Below are positions 15,542-17,139 of a stretch of DNA of 22,029 nt, piece after piece. Source of the DNA: a virus (Duplodnaviria; Heunggongvirae; Uroviricota; Caudoviricetes); the IMG/VR virus record IMGVR_UViG_2531839665_000007, positions 1 to 22,029 of that record. The stretch is one strand, 5' to 3'. The translations under genes and the position numbers were made by a program. Numbering within the stretch: position 1 is the first letter of the stretch; every line of letters begins with the position of its first letter. The notes below the pieces were generated by a model. That model did not search any database. It was given only the letters and a program-made list of their open reading frames with translations, and was not told where the DNA came from.

Positions 15542-15565
15542 CTTCATCGTCACATAGCTGGTAAC

Positions 15566-15592
15566 CAATGGCCTGAAGAGACGTTTGGGTGA
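15566..15592 (+). pseudogene. Remnant of the lambda cI 3' end (last 8 codons and stop)
   Basis: TGG CCT GAA GAG ACG TTT GGG TGA encodes WPEETFG-stop, the lambda CI C-terminus, about 25 bp downstream of the resident cI stop. Confidence 0.5.
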
Positions 15593-15638
15593 CAAGAAGC
15601 ATAGGTATTAACAATAACTTTCATGGTGATACGAATCA

Positions 15639-16181
15639 GTGGCTAAAAAAGGCGACTTTAAGCCTACCCAGAAAGAGGTTGACCAAGCTATTACTTGCTT
15701 GAAAAAAGTAACTTTTAGCGGAGTTTCGTGGACCGGAAGTGAGGGACGAACCCCAATCTGGTTTAAATTGGATCTCAAAGCTTTTGATGAAATTGGCAAC
15801 CCAATCACAGGCATAAGATTTATGCTTCACTGGCGTTCTCCTATCGTTGAAGGGGTGGATATAGTGAAGCTTTCATTTGTGATGTTTCTTCATGACAGGC
15901 GCATTTACGCGCTTGACCCGTACCCTGCGCATAACAAGTCACACCGTAATAAATCTATAGTGCACCATCCAGATTTTGTTGAGGTGGCTCGAGGTCCTCA
16001 CTATCACATGTACTTCGAATCAGCTGGGGAAGAAATTGCACTCAAGCTTGAAACGAACATCAAGCCAGATGATTTTTTTGGCTACTGGAATTATTTTTGC
16101 GAGGCGCTTAATATCATATATGAAGGCAGCCCACCTTTACCGAATCAAGATAAATCAGGTCAGCTATCATGGGAAATGTAA
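15639..16181 (+). CDS. Hypothetical protein, first gene of a two-gene cassette in the rexA/rexB slot
   Basis: 180-aa ORF from GTG at 15639 (GGTGA 8 nt upstream); His-rich segment HNKSHRNKSIVHHPDFVEVARGPHYHMYF; no resemblance to RexA/RexB as I remember them. Confidence 0.55.
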   Translation: MAKKGDFKPTQKEVDQAITCLKKVTFSGVSWTGSEGRTPIWFKLDLKAFDEIGNPITGIRFMLHWRSPIVEGVDIVKLSFVMFLHDRRIYALDPYPAHNKSHRNKSIVHHPDFVEVARGPHYHMYFESAGEEIALKLETNIKPDDFFGYWNYFCEALNIIYEGSPPLPNQDKSGQLSWEM

Positions 16182-16945
16182 CGTGTTCAACAGTCATATC
16201 TAAGCTCGGGTTTGAATGCCACCCAATGAGCGACACGTTGCTGCGCGTTATTAGTCCCTTCACATACTACGATGATTGTGAGCAGATAAGCGTATTCGTT
16301 CAAGAGATGAGTGGTCAGTATAGGGTTACAGACTACTGCGATACATTGATGAATATTGAATCACGCGGCATCCACCTGACTAAAAAGAAAATTGATCTGA
16401 TCAGGTCATCACTCGCTTCGCAAGGAATTTCATTAAATGACTCTGGAGAGATATCTGCGTGGGCAGATGAGTCGTCCGTTGGACAGGTAACTGCAAATGT
16501 TATTCGTGGTGGGATTCTTGCATCCGCCCAAACTGCTGATTGGTACGCTGAGGTCAAAGACGATAAGTTTGAAAAATGTGTAATCAGTTACTTAAAATCA
16601 GCAGGGCTTGGGAAGCGACTAGCCTTAAAGGAAAAAGTGAAAGGTATTAGTGGGCATAACATTACTGTTCCGTTAACGCTAAGGAATGAGTCTCGACTAA
16701 TACCACCAAAACGCGGGTTTACGGTAAGCCTTGCCAGCAGTAAAGGATGGAATACTGCCCACTCAACAGTTGGGAAGATTGTTGACTTAAGTCAGGTCGT
16801 TCCTGACATAAACAATAGATTTGTAATAGTTGACAGCGATGGGTTAACACCTGAGCTACAGCAACTATCACTACTATTTAATGATACCGCACGAGTGTTG
16901 CCATTCCATACCAGAGACTCTTGGATTGACTCTCTGGTAGCCTAG
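16169..16945 (+). CDS. Hypothetical protein, second gene of the rex-slot cassette
   Basis: 258-aa ORF overlapping the upstream stop by 13 nt (alternative start MSDTLLRV at 16226); followed directly by an intrinsic terminator; no recognised motif. Confidence 0.55.
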   Translation: MGNVTCSTVISKLGFECHPMSDTLLRVISPFTYYDDCEQISVFVQEMSGQYRVTDYCDTLMNIESRGIHLTKKKIDLIRSSLASQGISLNDSGEISAWADESSVGQVTANVIRGGILASAQTADWYAEVKDDKFEKCVISYLKSAGLGKRLALKEKVKGISGHNITVPLTLRNESRLIPPKRGFTVSLASSKGWNTAHSTVGKIVDLSQVVPDINNRFVIVDSDGLTPELQQLSLLFNDTARVLPFHTRDSWIDSLVA

Positions 16946-16950
16946 AAAAA

Positions 16951-16976
16951 CCCGGCCTCTGCGCCGGGTTTTCTTT
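16951..16976 (+). terminator. Rho-independent terminator ending the cI/rex-slot operon
   Basis: Stem CCCGGC (16951-16956) / GCCGGG (16963-16968), loop CTCTGC, then TTTTCTTT. Confidence 0.7.
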
Positions 16977-17139
16977 ACCTCACGTTCGCCTCCCCTATTT
17001 AACATCCGCATATGTGCTAACCCACGAACTAACACGCCAGCAATACAGTCCTTTCTCCCCTACAGACCAATCTTCAATCTTTGCAAAAATAAATTCCCTT
17101 ACATATCAAAATCTTATCTAATAAAATTAATGAGTTACA

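Follow-up and report, generated by a model that had tools for sequence, protein, structure and literature searches.

Prophage-encoded abortive infection, as represented by RexAB, Stk and BstA, has its historical home in lambdoid phages in the interval between the repressor gene cI and the antiterminator gene N. In a 22,029-nucleotide (nt) stretch of DNA from the virus record IMGVR_UViG_2531839665_000007 (hereafter the window), which is part of an Escherichia coli lambdoid prophage, this slot is filled by two overlapping genes, A and B. There is about an even chance that the pair constitutes a two-protein anti-phage module expressed in the lysogen, which would shield the lysogen from other phages, probably by abortive infection or interference. 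Several observations argue for this reading. The genes follow cI on the same strand across a 97-nt gap that contains no terminator-like site, and a hairpin closes the unit. In E. coli O104:H4 HUSEC2011 the pair stands in place of rexAB behind an authentic lambda cI. The slot is a hotspot for cargo, including a PDC-S43 candidate stacked with the pair in Providencia and Izhakiella. The PADLOC matches of the pair are limited to the candidate system PDC-M24A/B. A and B are strictly paired and linked to CI-type repressors across three proteobacterial classes, and both genes are under purifying selection. Finally, the same hotspot holds RexAB and BstA (PMC8585504), and DUF1829, a domain type related to B, is present in the DS-6/HipAD defence system (PMC13092281).

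Organization of the locus

The slot and its borders are arranged as follows, in window positions.

14834–15541, + strand: cI-type repressor with helix-turn-helix (HTH) and S24 peptidase domains (Pfam Peptidase_S24, E 3.5e-16, and HTH_3; PGAP 'S24 family peptidase', WP_000250469)
15566–15592, + strand: relic of the lambda cI 3' end (QWPEETFG and stop; 25/27 nt identity), left boundary of the mobile cassette
15639–16181, + strand: gene A, 180 amino acids (aa), GTG start
16169–16945, + strand: gene B, 258 aa, overlapping A by 13 nt
16944–16980, + strand: hairpin and U-tract, intrinsic terminator of the cI-A-B unit and right boundary of the cassette
17077–17192: putative OL/pL region, with palindromes and two promoter-like sites (+ strand) upstream of N, consensus matches only
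17389–17724, + strand: antiterminator N, far side of the slot (Pfam N_peptide, E 9e-26; PGAP gene at the same place)

Both open reading frames (ORFs) of the cassette, WP_001074605 and WP_000528775 in RefSeq, lie on the cI strand, and a terminator scan of the + strand detects no terminator-like site in the 97-nt spacer between cI and gene A. It is presumed that cI is the source of cassette transcription via a pRM-type promoter. The closing GC-rich hairpin (16944–16974) has a CCCGGC/GCCGGG stem that is lengthened by an A-run and a T-run and followed by TTTTCTTTA; its folding energy is -17 kcal/mol (z = -3.0). A simple terminator scan overlooks this structure, as its T-run is taken up in the stem, and the A-run on the 5' side potentially renders the terminator bidirectional. 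Promoter-like sites within B, which would be analogous to pLIT, are no commoner than in shuffled sequence, and therefore no internal promoter is claimed. The coordinates, lengths and strand of the two ORFs, their 13-nt overlap and the presence of a closing terminator had been set out in an earlier note on this DNA, and all proved correct on re-analysis.

Replacement of rexAB and exchange of slot cargo

The earlier note also placed the pair in the rexAB slot and took a remnant of lambda cI as a sign that the region had arrived by replacement. The cI-to-N position of the genes and the comparison with HUSEC2011 bear out both claims. In this strain (locus L015, 2314–4380) a lambda-type cI is followed directly by the A-B pair and rexAB is absent. 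The HUSEC2011 repressor is identical to lambda CI at 234/237 residues (99%), and the locus agrees with lambda up to the cI stop codon, beyond which it diverges from the lambda cI-rexA spacer. The succession of a lambda-type cI and the cassette therefore indicates that in this lambda-immunity prophage the pair has taken the place of rexAB. The cassette of the window is 98.4% identical to that of HUSEC2011 at the nucleotide level, and the homology extends from position 15566 (query position 1067) to 16983, that is, from the relic through the terminator; these limits thus define the extent of the mobile unit. The relic is out of frame with the resident cI, whereas in HUSEC2011 the same stretch is the genuine end of the 99% lambda CI. 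The presence of the relic is explained by a 933W-like cI that recombined before a cassette formerly located behind a lambda-type cI; the 3' end of the window cI and the 60 nt downstream are 90% identical to 933W.

Exchange has occurred on the other side of the comparison too. An allele of the window cI that differs by one amino acid is present in strains MS20675 and 48956, where the cI-N slot accommodates other cargo, and the cassette itself accompanies two or more repressor types in E. coli. Sequence comparison thus supports the view that the slot holds exchangeable cargo. In MS20675 (locus L014, 2672–3571) and 48956 (locus L016, 2672–3571) the occupant is a single hypothetical gene encoding 299 aa (WP_000076840/WP_000076839), which has no Pfam or PADLOC match and is unrelated to A-B.

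The cassette is carried by 65 of 5426 complete E. coli genomes, only 22 of which combine the window cI, the cassette and N. A variant of the type found in phage ev207 (A 41% and B 51% identical; YP_009909686 and YP_009909685) is present in a further 241 complete genomes, including the type strain DSM 30083. The window-type pair or its ∼50%-identical variant is thereby found in ∼5.6% of complete E. coli genomes. A megablast search with the cassette against a phage collection gave no match, and the ev207-type variant was found by protein-level search alone. The cassette is 100% identical in the chromosomes of strains C7, C3, JB2 and OkiPb01675. C7 harbours an otherwise identical prophage with two IS3-family insertions in the nin region (locus L001, 1175–2388 and 3409–4622), one of which splits ninB, a gene that is intact in the window (10981–11391); C7 itself is thus not the origin of the window.

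Pairing and repressor linkage among relatives

The association of the two genes was surveyed in 22 loci of B relatives taken from genomes, phage records and metagenome contigs. In all of them (22/22) B is immediately preceded by an A-like ORF on the same strand, with an overlap of 4–13 nt; the pair thus travels as a unit, a point for which the earlier note had suggested a survey. This count includes three loci in which A had been overlooked by gene callers and a Pseudomonas phage record without an annotation for A. The latter, VB_PaD_phPA-G (PP083311), encodes at positions 3420–4004 of locus L011 an A-like protein missing from the deposited record that is a clear family member, with the motifs HMNK...HPHLH...YAEPL...GQMGFDV. 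In this phage a 216-aa gene with a weak SHOCT-like match is located between the CI-like repressor and the A-like ORF.

A CI-type repressor gene closely precedes the pair in nearly all 22 loci, which belong to prophages of Gamma-, Beta- and Epsilonproteobacteria; the interval between repressor and pair sometimes holds one or two small genes. An upstream CI-type repressor of the S24/HTH class is present in phage ev207 and in prophages of Pantoea, Providencia (two), Yersinia, Xenorhabdus, Izhakiella and Thorsellia. Repressors of this class also precede the pair in Pseudomonas phage phPA-G, a Helicobacter pametensis prophage, Eoetvoesiella and four metagenomic contigs. The pair of Burkholderia phage phi644-2 and that of a B. 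multivorans prophage reside in a Cro/CII-type immunity region, and no S24/HTH repressor was identified directly upstream of them. One contig, L024, has a DnaB helicase gene upstream of the pair, a PIN gene downstream and no adjacent repressor.

Homologues from Enterobacterales share 46–89% identity in B and 60–86% in A. Between the window and Pantoea copies dN is 0.12–0.15 and dS is saturated, and between the window and HUSEC2011 copies dN/dS amounts to 0.06–0.36; comparisons of this kind indicate that purifying selection is acting on both genes.

In the Providencia and Izhakiella prophages a 113-aa ORF is interposed between cI and A-B (L004, 5052–5393; L005, 5053–5394; L008, 5044–5385). The L004 ORF is a DUF3024 gene that matches the PADLOC candidate PDC-S43 (E 5.7e-37); those of L005 and L008 are likened to it by size and place alone. 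Candidate systems thus appear to be stacked in one slot in these prophages.

Domain composition of B and A

The earlier note had found no assignable motif in either protein. This was too strong, since B is a DUF1828 protein above the Pfam gathering score (40.9 bits against a threshold of 22, residues 30–112). A displays no recognizable fold and a DUF6978 match below threshold. B also matches phrog_1960 (E 6e-119), and its AlphaFold2 (AF2) model is good (pLDDT 81) and consists of two domains. In the model, the N-terminal DUF1828 domain resembles type III secretion chaperones in fold and harbours a conserved cluster formed by C6, C17, D36, D55, D58 and G93-E94.

The C-terminal domain is predicted to adopt the alpha-beta-beta-beta-alpha-beta core fold of the PD-(D/E)xK superfamily. 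This domain has no Pfam DUF1829 match at E <= 1 in the window protein. Distant homologues that align with B along its full length reach the DUF1829 cut-off of 22.2 bits, namely phi644-2 gp47 (23.4 bits) and a Helicobacter prophage protein (29.1 bits). Across 38 diverse members G159, S161 and D206 are invariant, and K203 and D222/223 nearly so. Residue conservation lends no support to canonical PD-(D/E)xK nuclease activity of B: strand beta2 begins with H163, and K181 in beta3 is not conserved outside enterobacteria. As canonical catalytic residues are missing, the domain is described as endonuclease-like by fold and nuclease status is not claimed.

Protein A matches phrog_2017 (E 9e-73) and belongs to a small family, with only 22 representative clusters at E <= 1e-3 among 1.84 billion proteins. 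Like the window protein, every homologue starts with MAKK. The invariant residues are R88, the GxHxH motif (G119-x-H121-x-H123) and F153, to which long forms add D93 and H102-x-N104. Against Pfam DUF6978 the protein scores 21.7 bits, below the 29.6 cut-off, over its C-terminal 60 residues only, and sub-threshold matches to the same family are found in 5/16 members of the A family. On this sequence evidence A may be a distant relative of DUF6978 and PDC-M24A.

The AF2 model of A is moderate (pLDDT 65, pTM 0.68) and mostly beta, with eight strands and two helices, and no meaningful structural neighbour was found for it. A search of both A and B against the sequences of solved structures yielded no relative, the sole match being a His-tag artefact, and NCBIfam has no match for either protein. 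The C-terminal tail of A (PLP...SGQLSWEM, the GQ tail) is conserved and predicted to be disordered. Such a tail could serve as a docking peptide, perhaps for the chaperone-like domain of B.

The histidine-rich stretches of A, with their R-x5-H spacing, had been regarded in the earlier note as a speculative hint of a HEPN-like nuclease. The hint did not survive closer analysis. The histidines are conserved, but the arginines R103 and R118 vary (H-[RTSMQK]-N and [RIVL]-G-x-H); the model is beta-rich rather than all-alpha, and no HEPN family emerged in Pfam or PADLOC scans. Twelve separate stretches of a 1089-aa protein, P0054, match positions 91–109 of the A profile (the D-P-Y-P...H-x-N segment); these matches are probably a low-complexity or repeat artefact.

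Relationship to known and candidate systems

In PADLOC, the window pair matches nothing but PDC-M24A (protein A) and PDC-M24B (protein B). Both matches are weak: A aligns over residues 111–160 (E 1.5e-3) and B over residues 5–104 of the N-terminal domain only (E 6.3e-7), the B model being one with no curated cut-off. Among 16 members of the A family, three PDC-M24A models match 3, 2 and 2 proteins, possibly overlapping, with a best E of 5e-4. The correspondence is more extensive for relatives of B. Residues 2–248 of ev207 B, which is 51% identical to window B, align with positions 5–254 of the 256 in PDC-M24B (E 7e-10), and the Helicobacter and Burkholderia proteins match ∼200 (E 4.5e-13) and ∼230 (E 1.1e-10) profile positions, respectively. 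Analogously to the window pair, PDC-M24 comprises two genes of similar sizes in the same order (A ∼147 aa, B ∼255 aa), and homologues of A align with the C-terminal third of PDC-M24A; window A is ∼30 residues longer. The literature search retrieved no paper testing PDC-M24 and no functional paper on DUF1828, DUF6978 or the RefSeq accessions of the pair. By sequence, the window pair appears to be a divergent member of an uncharacterized family that combines DUF6978-like and DUF1828/DUF1829 proteins and is represented in PADLOC by the candidate PDC-M24.

The resemblance to lambda RexA and RexB is one of position: two genes on the cI strand, located between cI and OL/pL, with a terminator before OL/pL. 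The proteins themselves are different, as the earlier note had stated. BLASTP against RexA (279 aa) gives best E values of 9.6 for A and 0.61 for B, the window pair lacks an equivalent of the membrane protein RexB, with no RexB-like membrane segment in either product, and the sizes and folds of RexAB are unlike those of A and B. Phage 933W provides another cargo between cI and N, the prophage tyrosine kinase Stk, which Friedman and colleagues are said to have reported in 2011 to abort HK97 infection; this protein is likewise unrelated to A and B.

The cI-N interval has been described as a mosaic hotspot that includes RexAB and BstA, the latter a defence protein of the Salmonella prophage BTP1 encoded downstream of cI (PMC8585504). 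BstA shares with the pair a strict linkage to prophage repressors, a presumed common promoter, a terminator of its own and a distribution across diverse Gram-negative prophages (PMC8585504). It differs in comprising one protein rather than two, and a sequence match to the window proteins was not seen. DS-6/HipAD is a validated two-gene defence system composed of a HipA-like kinase and the DUF3037-DUF1829 protein DS-6B (PMC13092281). The link to the pair is the DUF1829 domain type, detectable in distant homologues of B, whereas the partner in DS-6/HipAD is a kinase instead of a DUF6978-like protein and the N-terminal domain is DUF3037 and not DUF1828.

A possible mode of action

If the pair is a defence module, the cassette would be co-transcribed with cI from the maintenance promoter, transcription stopping at its own terminator before OL/pL. 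Translational coupling of A and B would ensure that both proteins are made together, and they may form a complex. Within it B would act as a sensor or scaffold: its chaperone-like N-terminal domain could bind a polypeptide, either the disordered tail of A or a phage protein, and its restriction-endonuclease-like C-terminal domain could bind nucleic acid. A is the likeliest candidate for a metal-dependent effector, with the GxHxH cluster on a beta-strand and, in long forms, the additional D93 and H102-x-N104, and it would be released or activated upon infection. Shut-off of pRM after prophage induction would limit self-targeting.

A more specific proposal can be advanced only tentatively, namely that the pair is a phage-borne, repressor-linked immune module, distributed across proteobacterial prophages, with a new effector chemistry, in which a GxHxH metal site in a protein of unsolved fold is held by a chaperone-like domain. 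If true, the module would be mechanistically unlike any validated defence system. It would also be a natural replacement of rexAB in lambda-immunity prophages, including that of the O104:H4 outbreak strain.

Weighing the explanations

The earlier note nominated the pair as a candidate superinfection-exclusion or abortive-infection system. The slot, the exchange of cargo and the matches to a PADLOC candidate system sustain the candidacy. A role in defence is inferred from context, and RexA and RexB, the best-known occupants of the slot, act on the lysis-lysogeny switch as well (bioRxiv 10.1101/2021.04.19.439022).

The latter point leads to the main rival, in which the pair serves the lysis-lysogeny switch as an accessory that, for example, binds the repressor or operator DNA and tunes the stability of lysogeny or the commitment to induction. 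We consider this unlikely. In its favour, the pair directly follows a CI-type repressor at almost all loci, in three proteobacterial classes and with many unrelated repressor alleles, and most defence systems are less closely tied to any one gene. RexA binds CI and promotes the lytic transition (bioRxiv 10.1101/2021.04.19.439022), and the fold modelled for the C-terminal domain of B, that of a DNA enzyme without catalytic residues, would fit a DNA-binding role. However, the window cI allele works without the pair where other cargo is present, lambda cI functions alongside rexAB, and unrelated repressors are found with the cassette. As cargo is swapped behind one repressor and the cassette stands behind unrelated ones, a repressor-specific partnership is improbable. 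BstA is equally strict in its repressor linkage, yet it is a defence protein (PMC8585504), and at L024 the pair lies beside DnaB helicase and PIN genes with no repressor next to it.

Less probable still is a toxin-antitoxin-like addiction module that stabilizes the prophage by killing cured cells and has no primary anti-phage role. Two small, translationally coupled genes would suit such a module, the chaperone-like domain of B could neutralize A, and DUF1829 is found in DS-6B, which has been proposed to partner a HipA-type kinase in an antitoxin-like manner (PMC13092281). Searches of Pfam and NCBIfam, however, assign neither A nor B to a toxin or antitoxin family, and an HTH or ribbon-helix-helix autoregulator domain is lacking. 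The architecture is, moreover, compatible with defence, as many toxin-antitoxin systems are abortive-infection systems.

Exclusion at the envelope by blocking DNA injection, in the manner of SieA, SieB, Sie2009 or Cor, agrees with a lysogen-expressed location and was one of the two options in the earlier note, but it is highly improbable, for A and B are predicted to be soluble (maximum 19-residue Kyte-Doolittle hydropathy 1.22 and 0.79, respectively), with no transmembrane segment and no signal peptide or lipobox apparent, and the known envelope-level exclusion proteins are, to our knowledge, membrane proteins.

Other features of the window

Upstream of cI, Cro-, CII-, O- and P-like genes are found on the opposite strand. 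The putative OL/pL region is AT-rich and contains inverted repeats at 17077–17090 and 17149–17192 and promoter-like sites at 17098–17127 and 17160–17188, the latter being consensus matches only. A TTTTGCAA-type motif occurs near the divergent cI/cro promoter region (14744–14813), and a palindromic version, ATCTTTGCAAAAAT, is located upstream of N (17077–17090); the TTTTGCAA and ATCTTTGCAAAAAT motifs may be operator half-sites of the immunity type of the window.

The nin region accommodates a 590-aa ORF (8526–10298, + strand; PGAP hypothetical WP_000612803) on the strand opposite to its neighbours. It is flanked by an HNH/AP2 gene (7384–8031, - strand) and by the NinB gene (10981–11391, - strand), and it has no Pfam or PADLOC match. 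This ORF may represent another moron or item of defence cargo.

Significance

Defence cargo in the rex slot is already established as a concept, and the family to which the pair is assigned has been flagged as a candidate. The A-B pair is among the commonest uncharacterized occupants of the cI-N slot, and in Pseudomonas, Burkholderia, Helicobacter and other hosts prophages carry relatives of it next to repressors. The two proteins are uncharacterized, common and easily tested. Should they act in defence, they would represent a further system, one with a small subunit of no known fold, and the slot would offer a natural experiment in which the same cI is accompanied by rexAB, by the A-B pair or by other cargo. 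Should they instead tune the switch, they would extend the recent finding on RexA and RexB.

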